This document shows, piece after piece, positions 13,578 through 59,869 of a stretch of 64,000 nt of DNA (the first letter of the stretch is position 1; every line of letters begins with the position of its first letter). Below the pieces are notes generated by a model. The model was not told the origin of the DNA, did not search any database, and saw only the letters and a program-made list of their open reading frames with translations. The position numbers and the translations under genes are program-made. Origin of the DNA: Candidatus Poseidoniales archaeon (GTDB lineage Archaea; Thermoplasmatota; Poseidoniia; MGIII; CG-Epi1); contig JBJLBX010000013.1 of assembly GCA_045567955.1 (NCBI GenBank), forward strand, positions 2,226 to 66,225, read 5' to 3'.

Positions 13578-14044
13578 TAGTGCCAGCGATGATATGCAGG
13601 ATGTCCTTCTTTTACAGCAACAAATAGTCCCCTACCTGTTGCACAGGTTTTTCCATCAGCTTTTAATTCAATAATTACTTCAGCTCTATCATTTTGCAAA
13701 CCTAATACTCTGCTTTTTAGAATAAGTTTAGGACCAAATGGAGTAGGCCTTTTCAATTTTACTTCATACTGAGCAGTTACAGTGCATTGAGGTTCATCAA
13801 ATCCATTTTTGTCCATTATTGCGATCGCAGCAGTCCAGTTTCCATGGCAATCAATTAGCGAACCTATTATTCCACCATTTATGACTCCAGGAAATGCTTG
13901 GTGTTTTTCTTCACATTCAAATTCCATTTCTAGTCCATCATCTATTCTATAAGATTTAATTTGTAAACCTTCTTTATTCGATGGTCCACAACCAAAACAG
14001 ATAGAATTAGGTGCATATTTATCTTGTACAGCCTTGTTACTCAT
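13577..14044 (-). CDS. hotdog-fold (PaaI-type) thioesterase
   Basis: 155 aa. N-terminal CFGCGPSNKEGLQI and the hotdog-core pattern GVINGGIIGSLIDCHG. Confidence 0.65.
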   Translation of the reverse strand: MSNKAVQDKYAPNSICFGCGPSNKEGLQIKSYRIDDGLEMEFECEEKHQAFPGVINGGIIGSLIDCHGNWTAAIAIMDKNGFDEPQCTVTAQYEVKLKRPTPFGPKLILKSRVLGLQNDRAEVIIELKADGKTCATGRGLFVAVKEGHPAYHRWH

Positions 14045-15747
14045 GCATTTAACTCCTTGAGATTAGTCTCAACTAAATTAACGGCATATTTCAGCATACT
14101 TTCCCCAAATTCAAATTTTGCTCCTGCAGCTTCGAAAAGTTCAGGTAGTGTTGCATTTCCTCCTAGGCTAAGGGCATGTCTGTATTGTTTTACAGCATTT
14201 TTTTGATTTTCTAAAGCATTACCCCATACTTGGATTGCTCCTAATTGAGCCATCCCATATTCTACATAATAGAAGGGAACATGGAAAAGATGGAGTTTAT
14301 TATGCCATCCAGTCGCAATCACATCTTTGAATTCACTTGAATCTAAGTCATCATAAACTTGGAATCGGTTCCAAAGTTCGGTCCATCTTTCGTCACAGTT
14401 TTTAGGTTCTATAGCCATTTCAGGATTGGTATATGCCCAATGTTGAAAAGCATCTACAACAGCCATATATGGTAAGAACATGATGGTTTTTTCTAGATGC
14501 TCTATTCTTGCCCTTTTAGCTTCTTCTTCTTCATAGAATCCACCAAATTCTTTAGTTAGATAAGGTGCAGATAGCAATTCCATGGACATGGAAGCAACTT
14601 CAGCAAATTCCATGCCAACATCTCTTTGAGCCGAATATGGTAACTGATTAGATTCAAAAACATGAAATGCATGTCCACCTTCATGTAACATAGTTTGAAC
14701 ATCACTATGTGTTCCAACTGCATTCATAAAAATAAATGGAACTCTTCTGTGATGGTATTCAGTACAATAACCTCCAGGTGCCTTTCCTTTCCGATTAGCC
14801 AGATCTAGCAGTTTTTCATCTCTCATTATTTTAAAATAATTTCCAAGTTCTGAATCTACTGAGTTGAAAATATTATGACATTTCATTTCTAATTCATCAG
14901 CATTTTTAAAAGGTTTTAAAGGCGTTCGATTAAGCGTATCAACGCTTAAATCCCAAGGTTTGAGTGTTTTTAATCCTAGTTCATCCTTACGTTTTTTTAT
15001 TAATTTATTTGCGAAGGGCATAACTACTTTTTCAATTGCTGAATGGAAGTCTAAGCAATCATCTGGAGTATAATCAAATCGGTTTAGATATTCCCATCTC
15101 CATGATCTATAATTATCATGTTTAGCATTTTTAGCAATATTCATTCGTATTTGTAATATTTTTTTCCACACTTCATTTATCTTATCTCTATCTTTGAGTC
15201 TTCTTTCAGAAGCTAATCTCCAAGCTTTTTCTCTCTTTTTACGGTTAGTTTCCAAAAGAACAGGTCCTAGCTGTGTAATTGTTACTTCTTTATCTTCCCA
15301 TTTAACAGTTTGAGCTCCGATAATTGCATCATATTCTTTTGATAGTTTACTATCTTCCGTTATAAGAGGGAGGTTCTTTTCACAAAATAAATTTACTTCA
15401 CTTTTGATAGCCCGTAGTGGTATTTCAAAATTTTCAGGTACAAAACCACTATCTAACAATTTTTTCCTTAACATTTGATTTTTCGAGCTTGCATTTTCGC
15501 TAATGTCTTTTAGAAATGTATTAAATCTATTCTTAGCATTTTCATCAGTAGTATCCACAGTTGTGGAAACATATACATCAGTACCGACTTCTCCAATTAA
15601 TTCACTAAGATTAGACCAAGATTTCATCCAAGCATTGATGTTGTTTTCATCTATATCTTGGTTTAATAAATTGTCAAAGTAAGGCTCATAATCATTCCAC
15701 TTCCAATTCTGCATTTCTTTGCTTCCACTTGGTAGCTTTAAATTCAT
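14041..15747 (-). CDS. pepF: M3B oligoendopeptidase F-like metallopeptidase
   Basis: 568 aa. HExxH zinc motif HEGGHAFH with a downstream Glu (EFAEVAS). Confidence 0.8.
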   Translation of the reverse strand: MNLKLPSGSKEMQNWKWNDYEPYFDNLLNQDIDENNINAWMKSWSNLSELIGEVGTDVYVSTTVDTTDENAKNRFNTFLKDISENASSKNQMLRKKLLDSGFVPENFEIPLRAIKSEVNLFCEKNLPLITEDSKLSKEYDAIIGAQTVKWEDKEVTITQLGPVLLETNRKKREKAWRLASERRLKDRDKINEVWKKILQIRMNIAKNAKHDNYRSWRWEYLNRFDYTPDDCLDFHSAIEKVVMPFANKLIKKRKDELGLKTLKPWDLSVDTLNRTPLKPFKNADELEMKCHNIFNSVDSELGNYFKIMRDEKLLDLANRKGKAPGGYCTEYHHRRVPFIFMNAVGTHSDVQTMLHEGGHAFHVFESNQLPYSAQRDVGMEFAEVASMSMELLSAPYLTKEFGGFYEEEEAKRARIEHLEKTIMFLPYMAVVDAFQHWAYTNPEMAIEPKNCDERWTELWNRFQVYDDLDSSEFKDVIATGWHNKLHLFHVPFYYVEYGMAQLGAIQVWGNALENQKNAVKQYRHALSLGGNATLPELFEAAGAKFEFGESMLKYAVNLVETNLKELNA

Positions 15748-15781: not shown

Positions 15782-18184
15782 TCAGTTTAATTTTAATATT
15801 TTGAATAAATTAGGCCCTACTTTTACTTCATCACCTTCTTTAGCTCCTTCTAGTGCTTTTCCGATAGGATTTGTTAAAGGTATTTTTCCATTCTTAGGAT
15901 CAACTTGGTCTGGATTTACAAGTTCAAAATTATGTTCAGTTTCTTTTGTTAAGTTCTTAACTATGACGCTTGAACCAATAGCTGCTACTGGTATTTCTGA
16001 ATTAGTAACTGGTGCGGATGGCTCTTTTACAGCTTTATCGATGCTTTCAATTCTTGCTTCATCAATCTTCTTAGATAAATCTAAATTTTGGCTGCTGAGT
16101 TCATCAGCCTCTTCTTTCATTTCTCTTGTTACTTCTTTATTTTTTGGTACTTCTATTTCCATAGCTTTTATCTTTCTTTCAGTATCTTCTTCATTTCCAA
16201 TGGTGGTTCCTTGGAGAAATTCTAAATCTTCTTTCAATTTTTCATGTTCCGTTCTTTCAGTTTCCAGTGATCTTTCAGCTTGGTTCCTCTCATCCATAGA
16301 AATATTTAGTTCAGCTTTAGCATCATCAAATTGTTTTTTCAAGCTTTCCATTACCTTACTAACTTGTTTTGAAGCATTTTCTAAAGTATCAAGATCTTTT
16401 TTAGTTTTCTTTTTTCTTTCAGTTTCTTCTTTTAATTCATCTTGAATTCCTGCATTAGATGTGTTTTGTTCAGTAACTTGTTCTTGTAATTCTTTTAAAG
16501 AGTCAGTTAGGCCAATGATTTCACCTTCTTTTGCTCTATATTTTTCAGATTCTTGCTGTAATTCTACAATCGTTTCTCTTTCTAAATCCAATTCACTTAA
16601 TGTAACAGCTGCCTTTTCTCTTGCTGAGGATAGGTCTTTTTTGGCTTTTTCTATGCTACTAGTAAGTGTTGTAAATTTGTCATTTATACGTTTTTTATTC
16701 TTTTCCATAAGTTTCACTTCTCTATCTAATTCTTTTCTTCTTTGTGCAGCTTCATTACGTTCAGCTTTAGCTGCTTTTTCTCTTTCATTTGATTCTAAGG
16801 TATGCTGTTCATAATCCATTATCTCTTTTTCAAGATTATTCTTTTCTTCAACTGTTTTATCATATGCTGCTTTTACAGAGTCATAAGATTCTAGAGCACT
16901 AATGGTTTCAGGTTTTTCAATTTTTAGTTTCTTTTCAGCTTCTATTGCTTTTTCCTCAGCATCTTCACTCATTTTCCTTAAAGAACCAATTTCACGCGTC
17001 ATTCTATCACTTAATCTCATATCATTTTCATGTTTAGCTCTCAAATCTTCAATTTCAGTTTCGAGATTTGTTTTCGCGGCTAAATCATCATTTAGTTCTT
17101 TTTCAGCCATCCTAGACCTTTTTTCAACTTCGGAAGTGGCTATCCTAGCAGTTTTTAGTTTACTTTCTAATGAATTGTTTAAAGTTTCTACGCTCTGATT
17201 GAGTGCAGTTAACCTATCTAATTCAATATTTAAATCATCAATTCCATCATAATCAATGCCTTCTGCAGCTGTTTTTACGTCCTGTATTTTTTTCTCAGCA
17301 TTCCTTAATTTTTCCTCAGTATCCTCGAATTCTTGAAGGAGATCTTTGTTTTTCTCAATTTCTCCGTCTTGTATATTTTGTTGTCTTTCAATTAAATCTT
17401 GTTTTTTCAATATGTGTTGCCATTCTTCATCAATATTTCCGAGGATATACAGTGTACCTCCACCTGTTAGAACACTTCCCAATAGAACAACAAAGAAACC
17501 AATTCCCGGGCTCCATGTAATTGGCGTAACTCTTGCAACAATTATGTCTGCAGTACCTTCATTTTCAGCCTTAACAGTTTCTATACAAGAACCACTGCCG
17601 TAAAAAGTTAGAGGAGTGCTGACTATACAACCTAATTGGGATTCTTGACCTAATTCTGTACTTATGGCCGCTTCATCTTCCATTAATGCACCTGGCCATG
17701 CCATAGCGAATAATCCTGTAGTCAAGGAACCTAATACTAGGACTAGTATTGCTGAATATTTCAAGTTTTTAAGAACTTTCCTTAAATTTTTCTTATGTAA
17801 ATGTTTGATAGAGTCATTTGCCATATATGCAACAGCCATAGCCATAATCGCAGTACCATAAGCCAAACGTTCTATATTTTTCACTGCATTAATTTTGTTT
17901 ATACAAGATTCACAGTCTATTGAATAGTCATGATTTTCTTTAATGGCGTCATCAGAAGTAAATTTAACATATTTTGATAGATAATAACTGTATTCAAAAT
18001 AATATGAAGCTCCGGTAGCTTCTCCAGTATCTGGATCTACATTCTGTATTGTTCCGTTAACTTCAAACCATTCAGCATAATCTCCACTACTATGAATTGA
18101 GATTAGTATGACTAAGAAAGTAACAATGGCGACCGCTTGTATTTGTTGTAATTGCTCTTTCATGTGGACTACTTTTTGTCCCAC
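15782..18184 (-). CDS. 4-TM membrane anchor + ~470-aa coiled coil + GreA/GreB-like C-terminal domain protein
   Basis: Hydrophobic helices at aa ~17-30, 108-122, 143-163 and 225-247. An uninterrupted K/E/L heptad-rich region spans aa ~250-725. The C-terminal 70 aa match the Gre-factor CTD pattern. The true start may be the ATG at 18163 (see the TATA feature). Confidence 0.8.
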   Translation of the reverse strand: MGQKVVHMKEQLQQIQAVAIVTFLVILISIHSSGDYAEWFEVNGTIQNVDPDTGEATGASYYFEYSYYLSKYVKFTSDDAIKENHDYSIDCESCINKINAVKNIERLAYGTAIMAMAVAYMANDSIKHLHKKNLRKVLKNLKYSAILVLVLGSLTTGLFAMAWPGALMEDEAAISTELGQESQLGCIVSTPLTFYGSGSCIETVKAENEGTADIIVARVTPITWSPGIGFFVVLLGSVLTGGGTLYILGNIDEEWQHILKKQDLIERQQNIQDGEIEKNKDLLQEFEDTEEKLRNAEKKIQDVKTAAEGIDYDGIDDLNIELDRLTALNQSVETLNNSLESKLKTARIATSEVEKRSRMAEKELNDDLAAKTNLETEIEDLRAKHENDMRLSDRMTREIGSLRKMSEDAEEKAIEAEKKLKIEKPETISALESYDSVKAAYDKTVEEKNNLEKEIMDYEQHTLESNEREKAAKAERNEAAQRRKELDREVKLMEKNKKRINDKFTTLTSSIEKAKKDLSSAREKAAVTLSELDLERETIVELQQESEKYRAKEGEIIGLTDSLKELQEQVTEQNTSNAGIQDELKEETERKKKTKKDLDTLENASKQVSKVMESLKKQFDDAKAELNISMDERNQAERSLETERTEHEKLKEDLEFLQGTTIGNEEDTERKIKAMEIEVPKNKEVTREMKEEADELSSQNLDLSKKIDEARIESIDKAVKEPSAPVTNSEIPVAAIGSSVIVKNLTKETEHNFELVNPDQVDPKNGKIPLTNPIGKALEGAKEGDEVKVGPNLFKILKLN
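15785..15997 (-). other. GreA/GreB C-terminal-domain-like module
   Basis: AAIGSSVIVKNLTKETEHNFELVNPDQVDPKNGKIPLTNPIGKALEGAKEGDEVKV aligns position by position with E. coli GreA [56 protein letters not shown] (recalled from memory). Confidence 0.65.
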
Positions 18185-18188
18185 CTCC

Positions 18189-18196
18189 TATTTAAA
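18189..18196 (-). promoter_or_regulatory. putative TATA box (TTTAAATA) for the coiled-coil gene
   Basis: Consensus-like archaeal TATA read on the minus strand. It sits only ~5 nt from the GTG at 18184 but ~26 nt upstream of the in-frame ATG at 18163, which suggests a leaderless mRNA starting there. Confidence 0.45.
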
Positions 18197-18248
18197 GTTT
18201 CCTTTTTAGCGTTATTGTTTTTATTGTGTTTGTGCTAATATTCCCTCA

Positions 18249-18280
18249 GTTAACATTTTAACACCATGATTCTGTTAACA
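18249..18280. promoter_or_regulatory. two GTTAACA motifs 25 bp apart in the divergent intergenic region
   Basis: cAGTTAACAttt at 18249-18255 and cTGTTAACAatt at 18274-18280. The palindromic GTTAAC cores bracket an A/T-rich TATA-like stretch (ATTTTAAC) ~27 nt upstream of the ATG at 18285. Confidence 0.3.
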
Positions 18281-18284
18281 ATTA

Positions 18285-21200
18285 ATGAAGGTCTGTCCGG
18301 TCTGTCAATATGAAGAAGAACAAGATGATGAAGTGTCTTGTGCTATTTGTGGTTCAGATCTTGAATCTGAAGGTAGTATTATAGAAGAAATATCTTCAGC
18401 AAGTTCAGATATTAGTGAAGGAAAAAGTGGTGAGGTGAGTTCTGATATTGTTGAAGACAAAGCGACTTCTGAAAGTGATATTGAAGAATCTAGTTCTACT
18501 ACTGAATCCTCCATGACTGATGACGAAAAAGCAATGGAGGAGGTTTTATCAGCTTCAGAGGTTTCATCTTCAGATAAATCAGATAGTTCAAGTTCTTTTT
18601 CAGAGGTATTTTCCACTATTAAGGAATCGTTTGGAACTTTCTTTGGAAGACTTGATGGTTTTTTTAAGACAGATTCAAAAATAAATTATAAAGCTCCTTT
18701 AATGGCTCTCGTTGTCTCAATACTCTTATTTTTTTCAGTTATAGGCTTAGCAGTAACAACTGTTCCTTTACCAGATGAAGAATCTTCTGATGGCATGTTA
18801 CCTGTGTCTCCTTATCGTAAGAATGGAGTTGATATAGGAAGAGGAGTTTCCGATCCCTTTACAGGAGAGCCATTTAATTGTGAGATATGGGATGGTTTGG
18901 TTTATGAAGAATTTAGGGTAGAGGATGCTGAAGATCCTCTGATTACTTATGCAGTTACAGACACGAACCAAAGTGGAACCGTAGATAATAGCGAAAGGTA
19001 TGGTTGCTTTGTGAATATGAGTTGGATGAGTGGTATTTCGATTGTGTTTTTCAATATATGTTTATTTGTTTGTGCCTTATATCTGTATAATTCCGTTACA
19101 AATAAGTCAATACTTCAACCAATAATAGCCTTTGGTTTAGCTGAAGTTGTTTTATTTGTTATTTATGGTGGTATTCTCAATAAACTAATTGAGCCTTTAC
19201 TTTTGACAGTTGGTTTGGTTTGTACAATTTGTCTAATAGTTTCGGTAGGTGTGCTACTTGCTCGAGTAGTAAGAGAACGTACATTAGATGATCCACCTAG
19301 TTTAACTTTTTATTTGTTTATGATTGCTGTAGCACTACTGATTTCGTCAGTATTTTTCAATTATGCTCAGGGACCTTATTTAATTTGTACAGATGAGTAT
19401 GGTACTTCTCCACGAACAGAAATTATAGATGGCAATGTAACATTTATGGATTCTGAATTAGAGGAGATGAGAGCTAATATTGATTTTGAAGAACAAACAG
19501 TTTGTCAGAGAGTAGGGTACAAAGCATTACTTGTGAAACCATTCTATCTGGAGGGTGGCGGTTCAGATAGTATGATTCTTCTTTTAGCTTCAACATTTAT
19601 TTTCATAGGGGCTGGTAATTGGCTAATTTCAAGCACTAAAATTAGGGATATAGATGAAGCTAAATATATGACAATGATAATTTCAGGCCTTGTTTTACAA
19701 TTCTTGATTTTAGCGTATAATTTAGTTACAAACGGGGACGATGGTCTTGTTTTAGATACGAATGATACAATGTTAACAGTAATGGCCGTTGGTGTCGCTT
19801 CGGTTGGGCTTTTTTCATTTTATAAAAAACGTAAAGGTGATGCCAGCTCAATGGGTGTTGCATACTTTGGTATTTTTGCAGCAGGTATTTTTGCCTTATT
19901 TGGAACTTTTTTATCTCCAATATTAATAGGCGGTAATGACATAGAGATACCAAAAGATAGTGAAGGTAGATTGTATCTTTTATTAACTACTTTAGTCACG
20001 GCAATAGGATTCTGGTTAAGTTATAAATTTGGTTCAAAAAAGTTGCAAGAATTTTCAATTGCAAGCGATATGGCTATGCCTAATCGTGAAGATCCTTTTG
20101 CTCCAACAGTGCCAGGTCAGCAGGCAGCTATGCCCGAGTGGACTGTGGATTCAGCTATGGAATTCCTTATGCAGGAGTATGGAGATGAATTTCAGATTGA
20201 GCTAAAGCATACTACTGAACATACTCCGGATATGGCTCTTGTTGAAAAAACTATGATGGATAATGTGGACCAATCAGTTACTATTAGACAAGGGATAGAA
20301 GTTGATTATAATGTTAAATTTGAGGAAATAGCAGAGGCATATTCAACAACAAGAGACACAGTAGATGAAGTGATTACTCATTTAACTTCAGGTAAAAATA
20401 TTATGTTGTTCGGTGAGCCAGGAACTGGTAAAACTGCTTTATCAAATATATTATTGACAAAACTTTGTGGTGAGATAGATCAGCCTAATGGAAGTAAGGC
20501 TCCTAACTATACCATTGTGACTGCTAATGCCGAATGGTCTAATTTTGATGTTATTGGTGGTATTTCACCAGACGATTCAGGTGGTTATTATTTCAAGGAT
20601 GGATATGTAGCTGAGGCAGCTAAATTATGTGAAAAATCTATAGTTGAAACAGGAAGGCCCCATTATCTTGTAATTGATGAGTTTAATAGAGCCAATATCG
20701 ACGAAGCATTTGGTAAATTATTTACTGTTTTTGAATATAGAGATAAACAGCCATTATTGACGCATAAGGAAACTGGCGGAGCTCCATTTATGATGCCACC
20801 TGAGTTCAGAATTATTGGGACGATGAATACCCAAGATAAGAATACTCTTTTCAATGTAGGTTTTGCATTAATGCGTCGTTTTGCATTTGTTGAGATTGGT
20901 TTACCAGATCCTAGTGATGAATATAATAGAATGCCAGTATTCGTATATTTCAAGTTGAAGAAACTAGGTTTAGTTCCAGATAGGCCTGAAGGAGATGAAC
21001 TTTGGAAATTTGGAGAAAAATGTAAACACTTCCCAAGTCGTAAGTTTGATTTTTATGATGATGATGGTAATATGTATAAATGTCATGAAAAGTTAGTTAA
21101 ATTTTTAGCACCAGATGAGACGCCTAAACGTGGTGACGAAGTAGCAGTCGGTGTCCGTACTTTCCGTAAAATAGGACCTGCATTGTTGATTGATTCTATG

Positions 21201-21410
21201 GTTACTATTTTCAACTCTATTCAGAAATATGGTCCTGAATTAGCTCTTGATAAGGTTATTCGTTCCAATATTATGCCTTCCTTAGAAGGTTTAGAACGTA
21301 GTGAGATACGCTGTTTATTCTTAAAAGCTAAGGAAGTATTAGGGCCAAATTCAGTGGTAACAGAAACTTTCGATAGAATGGCAAACTCAGATAGTCTAAG
21401 TTTATTCTAA
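18285..21410 (+). CDS. zinc ribbon / acidic Ser-rich linker / ~10-TM domain / McrB-type AAA+ GTPase fusion protein
   Basis: 1041 aa. N-terminus is CPVCQ...CAICG, followed by an S/D/E-rich region (aa 25-110) and ~10 hydrophobic helices (aa 135-590). The C-terminal domain has Walker A GEPGTGKT, Walker B/NRA LVIDEFNRANIDEAFG and the McrB signature IIGTMNTQDKN...ALMRRFAFVEI. Confidence 0.85.
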   Translation: MKVCPVCQYEEEQDDEVSCAICGSDLESEGSIIEEISSASSDISEGKSGEVSSDIVEDKATSESDIEESSSTTESSMTDDEKAMEEVLSASEVSSSDKSDSSSSFSEVFSTIKESFGTFFGRLDGFFKTDSKINYKAPLMALVVSILLFFSVIGLAVTTVPLPDEESSDGMLPVSPYRKNGVDIGRGVSDPFTGEPFNCEIWDGLVYEEFRVEDAEDPLITYAVTDTNQSGTVDNSERYGCFVNMSWMSGISIVFFNICLFVCALYLYNSVTNKSILQPIIAFGLAEVVLFVIYGGILNKLIEPLLLTVGLVCTICLIVSVGVLLARVVRERTLDDPPSLTFYLFMIAVALLISSVFFNYAQGPYLICTDEYGTSPRTEIIDGNVTFMDSELEEMRANIDFEEQTVCQRVGYKALLVKPFYLEGGGSDSMILLLASTFIFIGAGNWLISSTKIRDIDEAKYMTMIISGLVLQFLILAYNLVTNGDDGLVLDTNDTMLTVMAVGVASVGLFSFYKKRKGDASSMGVAYFGIFAAGIFALFGTFLSPILIGGNDIEIPKDSEGRLYLLLTTLVTAIGFWLSYKFGSKKLQEFSIASDMAMPNREDPFAPTVPGQQAAMPEWTVDSAMEFLMQEYGDEFQIELKHTTEHTPDMALVEKTMMDNVDQSVTIRQGIEVDYNVKFEEIAEAYSTTRDTVDEVITHLTSGKNIMLFGEPGTGKTALSNILLTKLCGEIDQPNGSKAPNYTIVTANAEWSNFDVIGGISPDDSGGYYFKDGYVAEAAKLCEKSIVETGRPHYLVIDEFNRANIDEAFGKLFTVFEYRDKQPLLTHKETGGAPFMMPPEFRIIGTMNTQDKNTLFNVGFALMRRFAFVEIGLPDPSDEYNRMPVFVYFKLKKLGLVPDRPEGDELWKFGEKCKHFPSRKFDFYDDDGNMYKCHEKLVKFLAPDETPKRGDEVAVGVRTFRKIGPALLIDSMVTIFNSIQKYGPELALDKVIRSNIMPSLEGLERSEIRCLFLKAKEVLGPNSVVTETFDRMANSDSLSLF
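20380..20930 (+). other. McrB-family (AAA_5) GTPase domain
   Basis: Co-linear with recalled E. coli McrB FIIDEINRANLSKVFGE...YIIGLMNTADRS...ALRRRFSFIDI. Here the sequence is LVIDEFNRANIDEAFGK...RIIGTMNTQDKN...ALMRRFAFVEI. Confidence 0.8.
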
Positions 21411-21418
21411 GGTTAAGT

Positions 21419-21610
21419 CTAATGAGCGTGCATATCATTTCCACAGCACATTGGAGATTTAATCTTTCCACAACCACCAGGACATTTTGAAACGTCTACG
21501 GTTGAACCATCATCCTTAGTGAGTGTAGCGTGGACTAATTCTTTACCACATGCTCCACAATTCATTGCTGCAACTGACATGTCACAATTATGACAAACGT
21601 ATTTTCCCAT
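21419..21610 (-). CDS. small cysteine-rich (probable metal-binding) protein
   Basis: 63 aa with 8 Cys arranged as CxxC, CxxC, CPGGC and CC, and a C-terminal MHAH. It is the last gene of the minus-strand elp3 cluster. Confidence 0.55.
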   Translation of the reverse strand: MGKYVCHNCDMSVAAMNCGACGKELVHATLTKDDGSTVDVSKCPGGCGKIKSPMCCGNDMHAH

Positions 21611-42300: not shown

Positions 42301-43737
42301 CTAATCAAAGCTCTCATTTAACCATTTAGTTTCAATACGATTGTAGAAGAGTATGCTAAGTAATGCCAGAATAGCACATATAGAAGAAAGTGAGATAAGA
42401 ACTATCGAAACACTATATTTTATCGCCAAACTTAGGATAGTCATTGCAATCATTGGAGGTACTGAGACTACAAAAAATTTTAAGAATACAATTGAATCAA
42501 ATAATGCTGAATTTGTTCTTAGGCCTGTGGACCAGGCAGTATAATTTACAATGTACATACCAACCGTAATCATAACGATAATACCTATAGGCAAGAGATT
42601 TATTTCCGAACTCATATAGGAGATAATAGTTAAAAATAGTAAAGGGATCCACCATGTTATGGTAAAGAATAATACAAGTCTAGCTCTTACAACGTCTGAG
42701 ACTGAAATAGGTAGGGTCGAATAAAAATGAGGATTGTCTATGGTGTTTAGCCAAGAATAGATCATAGTACCAAAAAAGCCAACCATAACGGCATAGAAAA
42801 TTGTATTGAAATCAATTTGTATTGGTAAACCTTTGTCTATAAACCAATTCATAAATGTTAAAATTCCTAGAGGGAAGGCAAATGAAAAGAACATTTTTAT
42901 TCCAGTTTTACTTCTTTGTAAATCGATTCTTTCTTTTGCTATTATAGCTGGGTTTGAAATGTTTTGAGCCCATTTGAATTTTTTGATATACTCGTATAAT
43001 CTATTTTGGTATCCTATCATTTGAATTGGCGCTTGCTCATGATAGTCTGTAATTAGCAAGGTGGCAAAAATAGCGAGTAATATTGGAATTAGAATGGCTA
43101 TTATCATAAAGTTAGGATTATTACTTAGATACCATTCGAGCGACGCGGTGACTGATAAATCCTTGAAAAGAATAATGTACAGTATAGCAGTTGTTCCAGC
43201 ACCTATAATGCTTGTTTTCCAAGAAATTCTATATAGACTAGAAATAAGATAAGCAAAAGCTAATCCACTCAAAAAAGAAATACTTAATGTGAAACTAAAT
43301 TTTGTAAGATTTAGTAAGTTTATGTCATTGTAATATGCACCTAACATCCCACCAATAAATGCAGGTATAAGAGTAAAGAATGAATAAAATATAAATTCTT
43401 TGATAAAATATAGAAGTGTAATTTTCCGTTGTGTTATTGGTTGCGTATTTGGTAAGTTAATGATCATTCCTAAATATCCAAAAATTCTTTCTAGAAATTC
43501 ACTTCCAAAGAATGCTAAAGAACCTGCAAATAGACCATAAAACATTAGACCTATATGTAGTATTTCTAAATACTGAAAGTATCCCATATCAGCTATCATT
43601 TGCTCAGTAAAGATAACTGCAAGAAAGCCACTAATTGCAACAAGAATAGGAAAGGAATAGAATCCTCTTCCACTTGCAAAACTAGTATTCAATCTAATTT
43701 CTTCTTGGAGCATTCTCCATAATATTATTTTGTTCAT
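42301..43737 (-). CDS. ABC transporter permease (multi-TM)
   Basis: 478 aa with ~12 hydrophobic helices. 4-nt overlap with the upstream ATPase gene. Confidence 0.65.
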   Translation of the reverse strand: MNKIILWRMLQEEIRLNTSFASGRGFYSFPILVAISGFLAVIFTEQMIADMGYFQYLEILHIGLMFYGLFAGSLAFFGSEFLERIFGYLGMIINLPNTQPITQRKITLLYFIKEFIFYSFFTLIPAFIGGMLGAYYNDINLLNLTKFSFTLSISFLSGLAFAYLISSLYRISWKTSIIGAGTTAILYIILFKDLSVTASLEWYLSNNPNFMIIAILIPILLAIFATLLITDYHEQAPIQMIGYQNRLYEYIKKFKWAQNISNPAIIAKERIDLQRSKTGIKMFFSFAFPLGILTFMNWFIDKGLPIQIDFNTIFYAVMVGFFGTMIYSWLNTIDNPHFYSTLPISVSDVVRARLVLFFTITWWIPLLFLTIISYMSSEINLLPIGIIVMITVGMYIVNYTAWSTGLRTNSALFDSIVFLKFFVVSVPPMIAMTILSLAIKYSVSIVLISLSSICAILALLSILFYNRIETKWLNESFD

Positions 43738-45094: not shown

Positions 45095-45214
45095 ATGGTA
45101 GATGAACCTAATACTCCAAAGAAGAAGAGAGTTACCAAGGGAGATAAGAAGGCAAAAAAGCATTTCAGTCGTTACAAGAAAGGTGGCCCTAAGAAACAGA
45201 GAGTTAAGTTGTGA
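45095..45214 (+). CDS. possible 39-aa highly basic micro-protein (not in ORF track)
   Basis: Hand translation gives MVDEPNTPKKKRVTKGDKKAKKHFSRYKKGGPKKQRVKL. Its stop overlaps the GTG start of the ROK kinase (GTGA). Confidence 0.3.
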   Translation: MVDEPNTPKKKRVTKGDKKAKKHFSRYKKGGPKKQRVKL

Positions 45215-46065
45215 TTGGGGGGGTCGAGCTAGGAGGAACTAAATGTGTTGTTGCAGTTGCAGATAATCCTTTGGATATAGTTGAAAAGAAAATAATACCA
45301 ACAAGAGACCCAAAGAATACAATATCAGATATACTTTCATTTTTTAGTAATTTTCAGATTAGTGGTTTAGGTGTGGGGTCTTTTGGGCCATTAATACTTA
45401 ATTCTAGTTTAACAGAATATGGGCTTTTAGTAGGTGAAAGTAAAAATGGTTGGAAAGGAACAAATATAGTTAAGGAATTATCAAATATTAGTTCAAATAT
45501 TGCTATTGACACGGATGTAAATACCGCAGGTATAGGTGAATATATGTATGGTAATGGTAAGAATTGTGATAATTTGGTATATGTAACAATAGGTACTGGT
45601 ATAGGAGTTGGTGTTTTGGTAAATGGTAAACCATATACTGGGAATTTCCATCTTGAAGCAGGACATATATCTGTACCCAATCCAGATCAAATATCAGGAG
45701 TGTGTAGGATTCATGGAGAGTGTTGGGAGGGTTTAGCTAGTGGTCCTGCTTTAGAAGGGAGGTGGAATATGCAAGGTTCGGAAATTCCAGAAAATCATGT
45801 TGCTTGGGATAAGGAAGCTGAATTAATTGCATATGGTCTTGTATCTATAATTGTCAATCATTCTCCAGACAAGATAATACTAGGTGGTGGTGTTATGAAA
45901 CAAAGTCACCTATATTCAAAAATTAGGTTTCATTTTAAGAAAATATGGAATAATTATACTCCATTAGTTGATTTAACAGATTTGATTTCCAAACCAGGTT
46001 TAGGTTCTGATTCGGGTATTATTGGTTCTTTAATCTTAGCAGATGGTGGGCCCGCCCAGATTTGA
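45211..46065 (+). CDS. ROK-family sugar kinase (fructokinase-like)
   Basis: N-terminal ELGGTK, GTGIGVGVLVNG, EAGHI and Zn motif CRIHGECWEGLASGPALEGRW. Confidence 0.85.
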   Translation: MIGGVELGGTKCVVAVADNPLDIVEKKIIPTRDPKNTISDILSFFSNFQISGLGVGSFGPLILNSSLTEYGLLVGESKNGWKGTNIVKELSNISSNIAIDTDVNTAGIGEYMYGNGKNCDNLVYVTIGTGIGVGVLVNGKPYTGNFHLEAGHISVPNPDQISGVCRIHGECWEGLASGPALEGRWNMQGSEIPENHVAWDKEAELIAYGLVSIIVNHSPDKIILGGGVMKQSHLYSKIRFHFKKIWNNYTPLVDLTDLISKPGLGSDSGIIGSLILADGGPAQI

Positions 46066-46119
46066 ACTGGAGTCTATACCACCCCAAGGTACAAGGATGC
46101 CAAGCTACCCCACGGGCCC
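46044..46119 (-). tRNA. tRNA-Pro (GGG), CCA encoded
   Basis: Minus-strand fold: acceptor GGGCCCG/CGGGCCC, anticodon stem GTACC/GGTAT with loop TTGGGGT, T arm TCCAG-TTCAAAT-CTGGG, then ACCA. It overlaps the last codons of the ROK gene in antisense. Confidence 0.85.
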
Positions 46120-55943: not shown

Positions 55944-57992
55944 ATGATACCCGTATTTCCTATAGTTTCATTTGCTTTAATTCTTTTATTTGGAATGTAT
56001 GATCCAAGAAGAGGTGGATATTTTGCTTTAGTTGGTGTTGGTCTTTCTTCAGTATTTTCTATAGCTGTTGTTTATGAGGTTCTAATTCTGGATTCATTAC
56101 ATGGTGGTTTTATTGAATCTACTCGGACATGGTTTGGTGGAGAAACATATTCTTTTGAGTTTGGTACATACATCGACAGTTTGGCTGCAATTTTATTATT
56201 GGTTGTTGGATTTGTTTCATATTTAGTAGTTTTATTTTCTACAAGTTACATGAATGAAGATGGTGATCGGCAAATTAGGTATTTTTCAGAAATTTGTTTG
56301 TTCGTAGGTGTAATGCTTGGTTTAGTTATTGCTAATTCTTTCTTATTGATGTTTATTTTCTGGGAGTTAGTTGGTGTTTGTTCTTATTTATTAATTGGAT
56401 TTTGGTATGAAAAACCATCTGCAGCTTCAGCAGCTAAGAAAGCATTTTTGGTAACACGTGTAGGAGATGTTTTCCTTTTATTAGGTTTAATCATCCTTTT
56501 CAATACTTTTGGTACACTTAGATATTCTGAATTATTCAATGACCCTGAACTATTGGCTGCTAATGCTACTGAAGTGAAATGGGCTACACTTTGTTTATTT
56601 GGTGGTGCTGTAGGTAAATCAGCTCAGTTTCCCTTGCATGTCTGGCTTCCTGATGCTATGGAAGGGCCAACTACAGTTTCAGCCTTGATTCATGCTGCAA
56701 CTATGGTCAAAGCAGGCGTTTTCTTAGTTGCTAGGGCTTATCCATTGATTGTTCACAGTCCTGATACGGCAATCTACATTGCAGTTACAGGTGGTGTGAC
56801 TGCATTCATTGCAGCGAGTATGGCAATGGTTATGAATGATATCAAACGAGTTTTAGCTTATTCAACAATTTCACAACTTGGTTATATGTTTTTGGCGCTT
56901 GGAACTGGGGCCTGGGCATTTTGGCATGCAACTGAAGAAGGTTTAGACATTCATGTCCAAGGATATACTGCAGGTTTATTCCATTTGATGAATCATGCTT
57001 TCTTCAAAGCTTTACTTTTCCTTGGTTCAGGTGCAGTTATACATTCAGTACATACTCAAGATATGAGAGAAATGGGTGGGTTGAGAAAATCTATGCCTGT
57101 TACTTCTTTGACAATGGGTCTTGGAGTATTATCTATTGCAGGTGTTCCTTTCTTCTCAGGTTTTTGGTCTAAAGATGAGATTTTAGAAGCAGTTCACCAT
57201 AATGGAGAAGCTGAAGGTATCTTTGGAGCACTCTGGTGGCTTGCTCTGTTGACAGCTGCAATGACTGCATTTTACATGACAAGGCTTTGGATGATGACAT
57301 TTAGTGGACCAGAAAAAAGGACAATTAGTGAGATGGAGCCATCTAAAGACCATGAAGAAACAGGTAACTGGGAATTATCTAAAAAGGACGTTAAAATACA
57401 TGCGCATGAAGCTCCATTAGTAATGACAATACCTCTTATGCTTTTAGCTTTTATGGCCGTATTTTCAGGATTTTTATTATTCATTGGTGATGGGTTTGGT
57501 TCAAGAATTTATTTTGGCCACCACGATAGCACTGAAGGTGTTATTCAGTGGGGAATTATTGATCATATTCTTTCGTCATCACTTACTTATTTATCAGTAG
57601 TTGTAGGCCTTACTGGAGTAATATTAGGATATTTATTTTACAAACGTAGTAGTAATGGTGAAACTATACTTTCAACATCTTCTATTTCAGAAAATATTGT
57701 TTTTGGTCCACTACATACTTTTCTTTCTAACAGATTGTATATGTCTAAATTATTTGATTGGTTTGGAATGAGAACTTGGGATACTTTTGCAAAAGCCTGT
57801 GACTGGTTTGATAGAAACATTATTGACGGTATGGTAAATGGGACGGCATACATTACTCAAATTTTTAGTAGCAGAATTAGAAAGTTAAACTCTGGTTTTA
57901 CAGGTCATTATGCTTCTTTGACAGTTGGTGGTCTTGGTGCTATAGTGCTGCTTACTAGAGTTATAATGCCAATAATGGGGTGGTCAATTTGA
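55944..57992 (+). CDS. nuoL: complex I subunit NuoL
   Basis: 682 aa. FIFWELVGVCSYLLIGFWY and WLPDAMEGPTTVSALIHAATMVKAGVF motifs, with a long C-terminal extension (lateral helix region). Confidence 0.9.
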   Translation: MIPVFPIVSFALILLFGMYDPRRGGYFALVGVGLSSVFSIAVVYEVLILDSLHGGFIESTRTWFGGETYSFEFGTYIDSLAAILLLVVGFVSYLVVLFSTSYMNEDGDRQIRYFSEICLFVGVMLGLVIANSFLLMFIFWELVGVCSYLLIGFWYEKPSAASAAKKAFLVTRVGDVFLLLGLIILFNTFGTLRYSELFNDPELLAANATEVKWATLCLFGGAVGKSAQFPLHVWLPDAMEGPTTVSALIHAATMVKAGVFLVARAYPLIVHSPDTAIYIAVTGGVTAFIAASMAMVMNDIKRVLAYSTISQLGYMFLALGTGAWAFWHATEEGLDIHVQGYTAGLFHLMNHAFFKALLFLGSGAVIHSVHTQDMREMGGLRKSMPVTSLTMGLGVLSIAGVPFFSGFWSKDEILEAVHHNGEAEGIFGALWWLALLTAAMTAFYMTRLWMMTFSGPEKRTISEMEPSKDHEETGNWELSKKDVKIHAHEAPLVMTIPLMLLAFMAVFSGFLLFIGDGFGSRIYFGHHDSTEGVIQWGIIDHILSSSLTYLSVVVGLTGVILGYLFYKRSSNGETILSTSSISENIVFGPLHTFLSNRLYMSKLFDWFGMRTWDTFAKACDWFDRNIIDGMVNGTAYITQIFSSRIRKLNSGFTGHYASLTVGGLGAIVLLTRVIMPIMGWSI

Positions 57993-58354
57993 ATAAGTTT
58001 TTGGGAATTTTTGCTTTAGTAGGATTATTTATCTTATTTTCAGGTAGTGCTAATGCTGAAAATCATACAGTAATTGTCACTCAGGCTGATGATTTTTCTT
58101 CTTATTACTTTGAACCTAATGTTTTAGAAATAGAAGTTGGTGATAATGTACTATTTGTCTGGGGTAATGGCTCTCATAATGTGGCGCAAGTTTCAGATTC
58201 AGACTCTAATGATTATAATCTTGGTTTCTATTCAGGAGCTTCACAAGAAGGAGGTAATTGGTCGCTTCCATCTGAGTTCACTTCACAGGATGGAACTTTG
58301 TATTATGTTTGTGAACCTCATGCTACAATGAATATGCGTGGTTCAATAATAGTG
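57980..58354 (+). other. signal peptide-like segment + plastocyanin/halocyanin-like blue-copper domain
   Basis: FLGIFALVGLFILFSGSANA|EN, then a beta-rich ~100 aa with His (WGNGSHNVAQV) and the C-x2-H-x4-M ligand set (VCEPHATMNM). Confidence 0.75.
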
Positions 58355-59869
58355 GGTTCTGGATCATTACCGCTTCCTGAGATTTCTATGGAGTTTAGTG
58401 ATTTTCCTTGGTTATCATATCTTTTAGTATTTCCTCTCATTGGAGCTCTTTGGTCCATTAGCTTTAGTAACACACCTAACGCACCTCGATTGATTGCTTT
58501 ATTCACTACTTTGTTTACTTTAGTTATATCTATAATTGTTTTCATGAAAACGGGGTCAAAATCAGGTTATAGTTTGATGGAAGAATATGAATGGGCACCA
58601 AATTTAGGTATATCATTATTATTTGGTGTGGACGGTTTGAGTTCTCCACTGATCTTATTGACGGGAATAATAGGTCCTTTAACCGTTATTTTTGCATGGG
58701 AAGAAAAAGAAAAGCCAGGTCTTTTCTTTAGTTTACTTTTAGTTATGCAAACTGCACTTTATGGTGTATTTGTCACACTTGATTATTTTGTCTTTTATGT
58801 ATTTTGGGAAATTGTTTTGATACCTATGTTTTTCCTAATTGCAATATGGGGTGGAGAGAATAGAAGATACGCTTCAATTAAATTTTTCATTTATACTTTT
58901 ACAGCTTCAGTAATTATGCTAGTAGGTTTTATGGCTCTATATTTTGAATCTGGAGCTAATTCTTTTTCAATGATTGACATTGCGAATAGCAACAGAGAAT
59001 TTACAGAAGATTTCCAGATTTGGGTTTTTGCTGCATTGTTTATAGGTTTTGCAGTTAAGATACCTTCATTTCCATGGCACACTTGGCTGCCAGATGCACA
59101 TGTTCAAGCTCCAACAGCAGGATCTATTTTATTGGCTGGTGTGATGCTTAAAATGGGACTTTATGGACTTATTAGAGCAGCATTACCTGCATTACCTTTG
59201 GGAGCTATTTATTTTGTCCCAATTATGGTGATTTTAGCAGTTATTTCTATTCTTTACGGTGCAGCTTTAAGTTTAGGGCAAACTGATTTGAAAAAGTTGG
59301 TAGCTTATTCTAGTGTTTCTCATATGGGGGTTGCATTACTTGGTGTTGCTACAATGACGGAGTTAGGTTTGGCTGGTGCCGTATTCATGATGTTTGCTCA
59401 TGGAATTTTGAGTCCTGCAATGTTTATGATTGCTGGAGTTTTACTCCATCAAGTAGGAACAAGAGAAATTCCTAAATTAGGTGGATTAGCAAGACATCAA
59501 CCAAGAACTACGGGTATTTTTGTTGTAATTTTTATGGGAAGTCTTGGCTTACCAGGAATGGCGGTTTTTGTAGCTGAATTAGCTGTATTCATAGCTTTCT
59601 TTCAATCTCATGGTTACTGGCTTTTATTGCCTATTTTTGGTATGGTTTTAACAGCAGGTTATCATCTTTGGGCATTGCAGAGAGCAATTTTTGGAAAAGA
59701 CAGTGAAGAAATAGAAATAGGTAAGGTTCATGAGGCTCCATGGTATGAATTCTATCCTATGTTTACAATAATAATAATTGCAGCATTATTCGGTATCTTT
59801 CCACATTATTTGATGGATCCGATTAATACTGCCTGCTATGATATTTTGAATTTTATGGGAGTACTCTAA
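57980..59869 (+). CDS. nuoM: cupredoxin (type-1 copper) domain fused to complex I subunit NuoM
   Basis: A continuous 629-aa ORF: signal-like N-terminus, a cupredoxin ligand pattern (GSHNV ... YYVCEPHATMNMRG), then a full NuoM (GVDGLSSPLILLTG, WLPDAHVQAPTAGSILLAGVMLKMGLYG). Confidence 0.85.
   Translation: MVNLNKFLGIFALVGLFILFSGSANAENHTVIVTQADDFSSYYFEPNVLEIEVGDNVLFVWGNGSHNVAQVSDSDSNDYNLGFYSGASQEGGNWSLPSEFTSQDGTLYYVCEPHATMNMRGSIIVGSGSLPLPEISMEFSDFPWLSYLLVFPLIGALWSISFSNTPNAPRLIALFTTLFTLVISIIVFMKTGSKSGYSLMEEYEWAPNLGISLLFGVDGLSSPLILLTGIIGPLTVIFAWEEKEKPGLFFSLLLVMQTALYGVFVTLDYFVFYVFWEIVLIPMFFLIAIWGGENRRYASIKFFIYTFTASVIMLVGFMALYFESGANSFSMIDIANSNREFTEDFQIWVFAALFIGFAVKIPSFPWHTWLPDAHVQAPTAGSILLAGVMLKMGLYGLIRAALPALPLGAIYFVPIMVILAVISILYGAALSLGQTDLKKLVAYSSVSHMGVALLGVATMTELGLAGAVFMMFAHGILSPAMFMIAGVLLHQVGTREIPKLGGLARHQPRTTGIFVVIFMGSLGLPGMAVFVAELAVFIAFFQSHGYWLLLPIFGMVLTAGYHLWALQRAIFGKDSEEIEIGKVHEAPWYEFYPMFTIIIIAALFGIFPHYLMDPINTACYDILNFMGVL

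Follow-up and report, generated by a model that had tools for sequence, protein, structure and literature searches.

A predicted membrane-anchored archaeal stalk protein carries a GreA/GreB-type C-terminal domain and is encoded divergently from an McrB-type GTPase

The DNA analysed here, hereafter the window, is a stretch of 64,000 nucleotides from a Candidatus Poseidoniales archaeon (GenBank assembly GCA_045567955.1, contig JBJLBX010000013.1, positions 2,226 to 66,225 of the forward strand). On its minus strand lies a gene for a protein that closes with a true GreA/GreB C-terminal domain of ~67 residues. Secondary-channel factors of the Gre type are considered a bacterial feature; archaea rely on TFS, which is unrelated to them. 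Ahead of this domain the protein consists of a predicted membrane anchor, a long helical stalk and a short variable linker, and we refer to it as the stalk protein. We tentatively favour the view that it forms, together with a second protein, a membrane module confined to Marine Group III (MGIII)-type archaea, in which the Gre-type domain would be presented in the cytoplasm and would tether or regulate RNA polymerase (RNAP); this is the reading we rank first, and it would still sooner prove wrong than right. The open reading frame (ORF) at 15782-18184 that the initial annotation claimed is present in the ORF list as a minus-strand frame of 800 aa counted from a GTG at 18184. Residue numbers throughout refer to this frame, the likely start having moved to an ATG at 18163 (discussed below). 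The gene, its parts and its divergent neighbour are as follows.

15782..18163, minus strand: revised gene for the stalk protein with its Gre-type domain, 793 aa plus stop; the ATG encodes residue M8 of the 800-aa ORF

17435..18163, minus strand: predicted claudin-like membrane anchor, aa 8-250, with four transmembrane (TM) helices and an outward beta-sheet (AlphaFold2, Foldseek, conservation and charge bias)

16028..17434, minus strand: predicted cytoplasmic helical stalk, aa 251-719 (composition, conservation, heptads and model)

15986..16027, minus strand: variable linker, aa 720-733, 9-16 aa long, with a predicted local distance difference test (pLDDT) score below 50

15785..15985, minus strand: GreA/GreB-type C-terminal domain, aa 734-800, with the signature I-P-L-T-N-P-I-G-K-A-L-E-G (Pfam, hhalign, Foldseek and column statistics)

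18285..21410, plus strand: divergent partner, 1041 aa, with a zinc ribbon, an acidic/Ser-rich linker, ~10 TM helices, an McrB-type AAA+ GTPase and a C-terminal lid region

The Pfam model PF01272 matched aa 733-789 with an E-value of 1.4e-12 and 47.8 bits against a gathering cutoff of 26.9, and the final 92 residues alone scored 52.5 bits. Alignment by hhalign of aa 726-800 from 78 family members with the C-terminal domain (CTD) of 52 GreA-sized proteins gave a probability of 99.7% and an E-value of 1e-26. An AlphaFold2 model of aa 600-800 has pLDDT values of 83-87 across the Gre-type domain. The 14 best Foldseek matches of the modelled domain in the PDB are all members of the Gre family (GreA, GreB, Gfh1, Rnk and 2pn0; E-values of 1e-6 to 2e-4), and Rnk superposes with a root-mean-square deviation of 2.7 Å over 78 columns; FKBP domains appear among the weaker matches. 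The initial annotation had read a Gre-factor CTD at the C-terminus from the letters alone and had proposed a profile search and a structural superposition. Both bear it out, with the PF01272 match above its cutoff and the model superposing on Gre-family structures.

The demonstrable resemblance to Gre factors ends with this domain. NCBIfam equivalog models for GreA, GreB and Rnk match only the Gre-domain region and score far below their cutoffs (19-44 bits for GreA and GreB versus 145-234). The columns aligned with the acidic tip residues D41 and E44 hold V/I/T and a variable residue, respectively, in the stalk family, neither of them acidic, whereas GreA-sized proteins have D in 45/52 and E in 45/52. 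With GreA, GreB, Gfh1 and Rnk the stalk protein has in common a homologous C-terminal globular domain of the same fold (PF01272) and a helix leading into it. It differs in having no demonstrable finger, no D41/E44 tip and a P-x-x-N-P signature, and it is ~5 times longer, membrane-anchored, archaeal and paired with a GTPase. Because the acidic tip is absent, the CTD signature is altered and the equivalog cutoffs are not reached, we conclude from sequence that the stalk protein is not a Gre factor or an orthologue of one and that its globular domain alone is demonstrably of Gre type. It is probably not a Gre-type transcript-cleavage factor.

The stalk is rich in charged residues, with 18% E, 13% K and 9% L over aa 251-730 and only four Pro and nine Gly. 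Heptad periodicity runs across most of its length, with a weak signal at aa 419-465, and in the AlphaFold2 model aa 601-719 are helical apart from a three-residue break at aa 662-664 (TIG). The initial annotation had described about 470 residues of uninterrupted K/E/L-rich coiled coil; its length and composition hold, whereas the break and the stretch of weak heptads do not fit an uninterrupted coil. The length of the stalk is exactly 469 residues, with zero indels, in 77/77 core members, and is 472 residues in a homologue of 36% identity. Mean pairwise identity is 82-84% in the stalk centre (aa 311-540), the best-conserved part of the protein, and 80% in the Gre-type domain, compared to 41-46% in the outer loops of the anchor, which evolve fastest and carry indels, and 22% in the linker ahead of the domain. 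Since both length and sequence are fixed, the stalk suggests a ruler or interaction scaffold rather than a spacer, and it would span ~70 nm if fully extended, or it may fold back on itself. The exact conservation of 469 residues is an unusually clean example of a candidate molecular ruler. For the stalk block with the highest conservation (aa 375-470), no homologue of known structure was found. The hinge TIG-x-EED (aa 662-667) was considered as a Gre-like acidic tip and rejected; the core family keeps it and the 36%-identity homologue has it replaced.

At the N-terminus, an AlphaFold2 model of aa 8-275 built from 13 sequences, including the two most divergent relatives, has a pLDDT of 82.8 and a predicted TM-score of 0.73. 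It contains four long helices (~16-31, 95-127, 134-172 and 228-250+) arranged as a four-helix bundle, topped by an outward-facing beta-sheet to which loop 1 contributes four strands and loop 2 contributes two. TM4, which holds the invariant motif TGGGTLYILG, continues unbroken into the stalk. Each large loop contains two Cys residues (C91, C94, C186 and C200), invariant in a 14-sequence alignment. The four N-terminal TM helices with Cys-bearing outer loops that were originally proposed are thus supported by the model and by the invariant Cys; hydropathy alone gives three clear peaks. The short loop 124-142 carries 7 K/R and 1 D/E, and both large loops are acidic. Given this charge bias, the positive-inside rule predicts an N-in/C-in topology in which the N-terminus, the entire stalk and the Gre-type domain would be cytoplasmic.

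Surveying the PDB with the anchor model using Foldseek returned TARP gamma-5, gamma-7 and gamma-2, claudin-3, -4 and -9, GARLH4, the CaV gamma subunit, DUOXA1 and a de novo 'claudin fold' design, with probabilities of ~1.0 and target-normalised TM-scores of up to 0.67-0.69. The anchor is therefore predicted with confidence to adopt a claudin/TARP-like fold. It shares with the eukaryotic claudin/PMP22/TARP-gamma superfamily and DUOXA1, which have four TM helices and an extracellular beta-sheet, the predicted four-helix bundle, a beta-sheet built from two loops and loop Cys. Unlike them it is prokaryotic, and its TM4 is prolonged into the 469-residue cytoplasmic stalk. The claudin-family Pfam models PF00822 and PF13903 gave no match to the stalk protein even at E-values up to 10, and the W-LW-C-C motif of claudin loop 1 was not found in the anchor, whose loop 1 has a CxxC beside TM2 instead. 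We regard the likeness as a resemblance at the level of fold, which may reflect convergence, and not as demonstrated homology. Several claudin-fold proteins, among them TARP and DUOXA1, are auxiliary subunits that bind laterally to multi-TM partners. Beyond the stalk-protein family and its fragments, the membrane domain was seen only in one 295-aa archaeal protein, P0165 (positions 100-987 of its contig, L031). This protein has the claudin-like domain, including the loop-1 CxxC, followed by a Pro-rich segment and a C4 zinc ribbon, with no stalk. Its contig encodes Topo VI and RadA and ends just upstream of the P0165 gene.

The partner, encoded on the opposite strand, begins with a zinc ribbon bearing an acidic EEE loop (aa 4-22; CPVC-xx-EEE-...-CxxCGSD), and the EEE triplet is kept in nearly all full-length homologues, even at 33% identity. 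Hydropathy predicts ~10 TM helices at aa 139-583 with two large outer loops, each containing a Cys pair. Pfam and NCBIfam place an McrB-type AAA+ GTPase at aa ~689-880, and the best PDB matches of the partner are the McrB proteins of E. coli and Thermococcus (E-values of 2e-19 to 1e-15). The motifs GEPGTGKT, DEFNRAN, MNTQD and RRF are invariant in 53/53 partner sequences. Some homologues are 1136-1306 aa long, with the expansions lying outside the GTPase. The partner thus shares with the McrBC Type IV restriction system an McrB-type AAA+ domain with Walker A, Walker B (DExNR), the NxxD signature and RRF. It departs from that system in that its GTPase forms one polypeptide with a zinc ribbon and ~10 TM helices, in its archaeal housekeeping locus, and in having no McrC, nuclease or DNA-binding N-terminal domain. 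The gene tables of the loci contain no gene for McrC (DUF2357 plus a PD-(D/E)xK nuclease), and in them neither the pair nor the adjoining genes encode a nuclease, another effector or a DNA-binding domain.

The initial annotation had suggested checking whether the McrB-like neighbour is conserved, and this was its most informative suggestion. The two genes are strictly co-conserved, adjacent and divergent in 27/27 loci with upstream sequence and also in one divergent locus found later, and the partner family has the same narrow distribution as the stalk protein. A divergent, higher-GC (guanine plus cytosine) lineage keeps the pair on a 4-kb locus (L030) and an 8.3-kb locus (L033), with 34-36% identity in the stalk protein and 49% in the partner. 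In L033 the upstream neighbour is a cupin gene, and a PAP2 gene stands between the stalk gene and an M3 peptidase 57% identical to that of the window. Apparent loss of the downstream PepF gene in this lineage was overturned by this locus, where the M3 peptidase lies beyond the PAP2 gene; the upstream synteny is lost.

On sequence evidence the stalk gene is restricted to MGIII-type archaea, with 25 species genomes represented. A word-indexed search of 5.8 billion proteins returned 90 clusters, all 64-99% identical and from marine metagenomes and MGIII or Poseidoniales metagenome-assembled genomes (MAGs); public pipelines had automatically named some members 'GreA/GreB family elongation factor'. 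When 1.84 billion representatives were searched exhaustively by profile, the full-length architecture was confined to the stalk family and one divergent cluster, P0091 (799 aa, 501 bits, 36% identity, 26 members). The remaining strong matches were all fragments; below them ranked ordinary GreA-sized proteins, the named ones being bacterial GreA, for example that of Thermodesulfobium. Species-representative genomes contributed 25 loci, all in archaeal MAGs or single-amplified genomes, seven labelled MGIII and one Thalassarchaeaceae. Bacterial host labels (SAR202 and Dehalococcoidia) on two fragments, P0300 (a member of the P0091 cluster) and P0297 (a partner homologue), were judged to be binning errors. 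They are probably mis-binned because their contigs are short (2.8 and 5.2 kb) and because an archaeal-type TATA element and the M3 peptidase are common to the divergent lineage and the MGIII loci.

The window itself belongs to a housekeeping part of an archaeal genome, with genes for thermosome, aIF2-gamma, deoxyhypusine synthase and a complex I operon, and the syntenic block also holds TFB, ELP3, PCNA, proteasome and aCPSF1. The placement of the gene in an archaeon by the initial annotation agrees with the thermosome, aIF2-gamma and deoxyhypusine synthase genes and with the 25/25 genome matches that are archaeal. The survey of phyletic distribution that it proposed found the family kept across the 25 MGIII-type species genomes. 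No RNAP subunit or TFS genes were seen within the window.

How the pair might work can be laid out as follows. The claudin-fold four-helix anchor would hold the protein in the cytoplasmic membrane, and TM4 would lead through the fixed-length cytoplasmic stalk and the flexible linker to the Gre-type domain. That domain would act as a docking module for a helical hairpin, the likeliest target being the conserved rim (funnel) coiled coil at the secondary channel of archaeal RNAP, so that a subpopulation of RNAP would be tethered or regulated at a set distance from the membrane. The anchor may pair laterally with the 10-TM domain of the partner, as TARP and DUOXA1 do with theirs, and GTP hydrolysis by the partner, possibly together with the state of the Cys-bearing outer loops, would control assembly. 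All characterised Gre-C domains (GreA, GreB, Gfh1 and Rnk) dock on the rim helices of beta-prime (PMC8195603; PMC7527559). Kaur et al. noted that the rim coiled coil is universally conserved and predicted the same role for Gre-C domains in non-Gre architectures, some of them archaeal (PMC8195603). RNAP is the most plausible target because its rim is the only target known for Gre-C domains, occurs as a conserved element in every cellular RNAP and has been predicted as the target in these other architectures. By this analogy binding is predicted, and our confidence in any mechanism is low.

Several observations weigh against the RNAP tether. The near-universal Gre signature S-x-x-S-P-[LIVM]-[AG] (S121 to P125 in E. 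coli GreA) reads P-x-x-N-P-I-G in the stalk family, with P for S121 in 77/78 and N for S124 in 78/78 members, and GreA-sized proteins have S at these positions in 47/52 and 49/52. No Pfam match to the Gre N-terminal finger domain PF03449 was obtained in the stalk protein. In archaea the rim of the secondary channel is not the same in detail as that of bacteria, TFS is the factor that normally acts there, and we know of no Gre-type protein that binds an archaeal RNAP. The lateral association of anchor and partner is suggested by gene linkage and fold analogy alone. In E. coli GreA, S121P abolishes competition for RNAP and co-purification with it, and both Gre domains are reported to be necessary for specific RNAP binding (PMC7527559). 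On account of the changed signature and of a finger that could not be demonstrated, we hold the RNAP reading with well under even confidence.

Nearly as likely is a reading in which the Gre-type domain has been repurposed, would not bind RNAP and would dock on another helical target, with the module doing mechanical work at the membrane unrelated to transcription. We consider this possible, if short of probable. The initial annotation had offered both options, a tether for RNAP and a reused binding module, and either may hold. The target may be the partner GTPase, in which case the stalk protein would be the missing McrC-like regulator or adaptor of the ring, or it may be a stalk belonging to an adjacent copy of the protein. 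Hydrolysis by McrB GTPases depends on stimulation by a partner protein that extends into their ring (PMC11090510), and the stalk gene is strictly linked to an McrB-type GTPase with no adjacent McrC. The change in the signature falls where S121P abolishes RNAP binding in E. coli (PMC7527559), and the Gre-C fold, which is FKBP-like (PMC8195603), could be a generic binding module, consistent with the FKBP domains among the weaker Foldseek matches. Bacterial McrB-family GTPases with long coiled coils and TM segments, CoCoNuT and CoCoPALM (Bell et al. 2024, PMC11090510), provide a precedent for the association. However, those coiled-coil-associated clades carry the NxD variant of the GTPase signature (PMC11090510), whereas the partner has NTQD, that is NxxD, and the coiled coil, which in CoCoNuT and CoCoPALM is fused to the GTPase, belongs here to a different protein. 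Those systems are accompanied by HEPN or other nucleases or by pilus-assembly genes; the loci, by their gene tables, have neither nuclease nor signal-peptidase neighbours. Pfam detected no likeness of the stalk protein to the McrC N-terminal domain (DUF2357), and no Gre-C domain is known to bind anything except RNAP.

Structural and defence roles are less likely than either of these readings. In the first, the protein would be mainly structural or cytoskeletal, an EzrA-like or SMC-arm-like envelope scaffold for shape, division or surface organisation, with the Gre-type domain as a minor adaptor. We consider this unlikely, although no part of the protein is longer or better conserved than the stalk, the stalk length is exactly fixed and every MGIII-type genome match found has the gene in a housekeeping region. 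With bacterial EzrA and the arms of SMC and Rad50 the stalk protein shares an N-terminal membrane anchor or a long coiled coil of conserved length as scaffold or ruler. Sequence kinship to them does not extend beyond coiled-coil composition, ATPase heads are absent, and the anchor and terminal domain are different. The NCBIfam SMC and Rad50 models do match the stalk weakly, but at 14-36 bits versus cutoffs of 567-1000 and within the coiled coil only, and the halves of an ABC-type ATPase head that SMC and Rad50 carry at the coiled-coil ends were not found by these matches. The weak-heptad, highly conserved segment at aa 419-465 sits at the midpoint of aa 251-657, as the apex of a fold-back arrangement would; this is an idea only. 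A decaying appendage would not be expected to be as conserved as the stalk, as the Gre-type domain is, and the gene tables of the loci link no cell-division or envelope genes to the pair.

In another reading the C-terminal ~155 residues would be a complete Gre-like factor fused to the stalk and, like Gfh1 or Rnk, would inhibit or modulate RNAP from within its secondary channel. Profile alignment places aa ~647-800 colinear with GreA residues 11-156, nearly its full length (EKLKEDLEFLQ aligning with GreA EKLREELDFLK), and many GreA-sized proteins align end to end. The hhalign score rises from 126 for the CTD alone to 151 with the native upstream segment, the highest of the 16 segments tested. 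Chimeras of unrelated stalk segments and the CTD nevertheless reach 130-147, and without the CTD the native segment matches the Gre N-terminal domain with P=0.004, while other stalk segments reach 0.001. These controls suggest that the extension is largely generic coiled-coil similarity. The AlphaFold2 model shows a single helix at aa 665-719 with no hairpin at the aligned finger tip, in a region of low confidence, and the missing PF03449 match and the non-acidic D41/E44 columns speak against a finger as well. A complete module of finger and CTD was rejected on the strength of the hhalign controls and is kept here as an improbable alternative.

The pair could also be an antiviral or conflict system, in which a GTPase like that of Type IV restriction and a membrane sensor would be combined with a Gre-C domain monitoring hijacked RNAP, as proposed for TPR-GreA/B-C-PIN proteins. 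The partner ATPase is specifically of McrB type, and the outer loops of the anchor evolve fastest and carry indels, as virus-exposed surfaces would be expected to. GreA/B-C domains outside Gre factors have been described in predicted conflict systems and occur sporadically in archaea (Kaur et al. 2021, PMC8195603). The TPR-GreA/B-C-PIN proteins (PMC8195603) resemble the stalk protein in reusing Gre-C as a presumed RNAP-docking module within a larger multidomain protein, and they too occur, sporadically, in archaea. They carry a variable N-terminal effector and are standalone and sporadic, whereas the stalk gene is conserved at a fixed locus in one lineage, and the stalk protein, anchored to the membrane by its long stalk, has no TPR, PIN or effector domain that Pfam or PADLOC could match. 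Moreover, the stalk protein had no PADLOC match, the partner had weak ones of P-loop type only, and neither PHROGs nor the viral contigs of IMG/VR contained relatives of the pair, so membership in a defence system was rejected. With no nuclease or effector domain in or adjoining the pair, cytoplasmic parts that are highly conserved and not diversifying, and a housekeeping locus at which the genes stay together, we regard this role as very improbable. Defence systems are usually sporadic and island-borne.

The least probable reading of all is that the pair is a membrane-bound, GTP-driven effector of the archaeal RNAP secondary channel that combines bacterial and archaeal design, in which the Gre-type domain would dock on the rim helices, the EEE zinc-ribbon loop of the partner, an analogue of the acidic hairpin in the zinc ribbon of TFS/TFIIS and of the Gre acidic tip, would enter the channel, and surface signals sensed by the Cys-bearing loops of the anchor and the 10-TM domain would be coupled to transcript cleavage or RNAP inhibition.

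We found no paper describing this architecture or gene pair, and none that mentions GreA together with MGIII, Poseidoniales or Thermoplasmatota. The Gre-C domain, its reuse in other proteins and the pipeline flags on these proteins are known already. It is the combination of a claudin-like anchor, an invariant-length stalk, a Gre-C domain and a 10-TM McrB-type GTPase without McrC that has no described counterpart. An order-level lineage of abundant, uncultured marine archaea keeps, at an unchanging locus among housekeeping genes, a Gre-type docking domain on a membrane stalk. If archaeal RNAP is the target of this domain, the secondary-channel rim would be a cross-domain regulatory port, and transcription would be physically coupled to the membrane in archaea with an McrB-type GTPase recruited to the task. 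Binding to some other target would make it the first Gre-C domain to recognise anything but RNAP. Should the pair be a secondary-channel effector, it would be the first archaeal Gre-type RNAP regulator and the first membrane-tethered secondary-channel factor in any domain. Either way, it is noteworthy that a prokaryotic protein is predicted with confidence to have a claudin-like fold and that an McrB-type GTPase with 10 TM helices occurs without McrC.

The true start of the stalk gene is probably the ATG at 18163 rather than the GTG at 18184. The GTG was rejected because a conserved TATA element sits downstream of it and because most homologues open with MKEQLQQ at the position of the ATG. Automatic 800-aa annotations are probably seven residues overlong, the GTG lying upstream of the likely transcription start. 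Two putative promoter elements were identified between the genes.

18190..18197, minus strand: putative archaeal TATA box TTTAAATA, inside the conserved AAACTTTAAATAGG, ~27-34 nt upstream of the ATG at 18163; its function is suggested by consensus and conservation

18246..18262, plus strand: conserved TATA-like element TCAGTTAACATTTTAAC, ~28 nt upstream of the ATG of the partner gene

The core of the first element is invariant in nine loci, including the 36%-identity lineage. The two would form back-to-back promoters of the divergent gene pair, and from what is generally known of archaeal promoters the stalk-gene transcript is likely to be short-leader or leaderless.

An M3 oligoendopeptidase gene (PepF-like; 14041-15747, minus strand) begins 34 nt past the stop codon of the stalk gene on the same strand, and in almost all loci an M3 peptidase lies downstream of the stalk gene, at times with ~1 kb or a PAP2 gene between. 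Just downstream of the partner gene, on the opposite strand, is a 63-aa Cys/His-rich ORF (21419-21610, minus strand; MGKYVCHNCDMSVAAMNCGACGK...CCGNDMHAH), which is 70-97% identical in many related loci and has no Pfam, PADLOC or PHROG match. Elsewhere in the window, an antiporter-like subunit of complex I (57980-59869, plus strand; Proton_antipo_M) carries an N-terminal plastocyanin/azurin-type copper-binding domain at aa 42-125, an unusual fusion in a nuo operon. An ORF of 478 aa (42301-43737, minus strand) has no Pfam match at E<=1e-5. ARAGORN predicts a tRNA-Pro(GGG) at 46044-46119 on the minus strand, which falls below the Rfam tRNA gathering score and overlaps the 3' end of a ROK-family ORF at 45211-46065.

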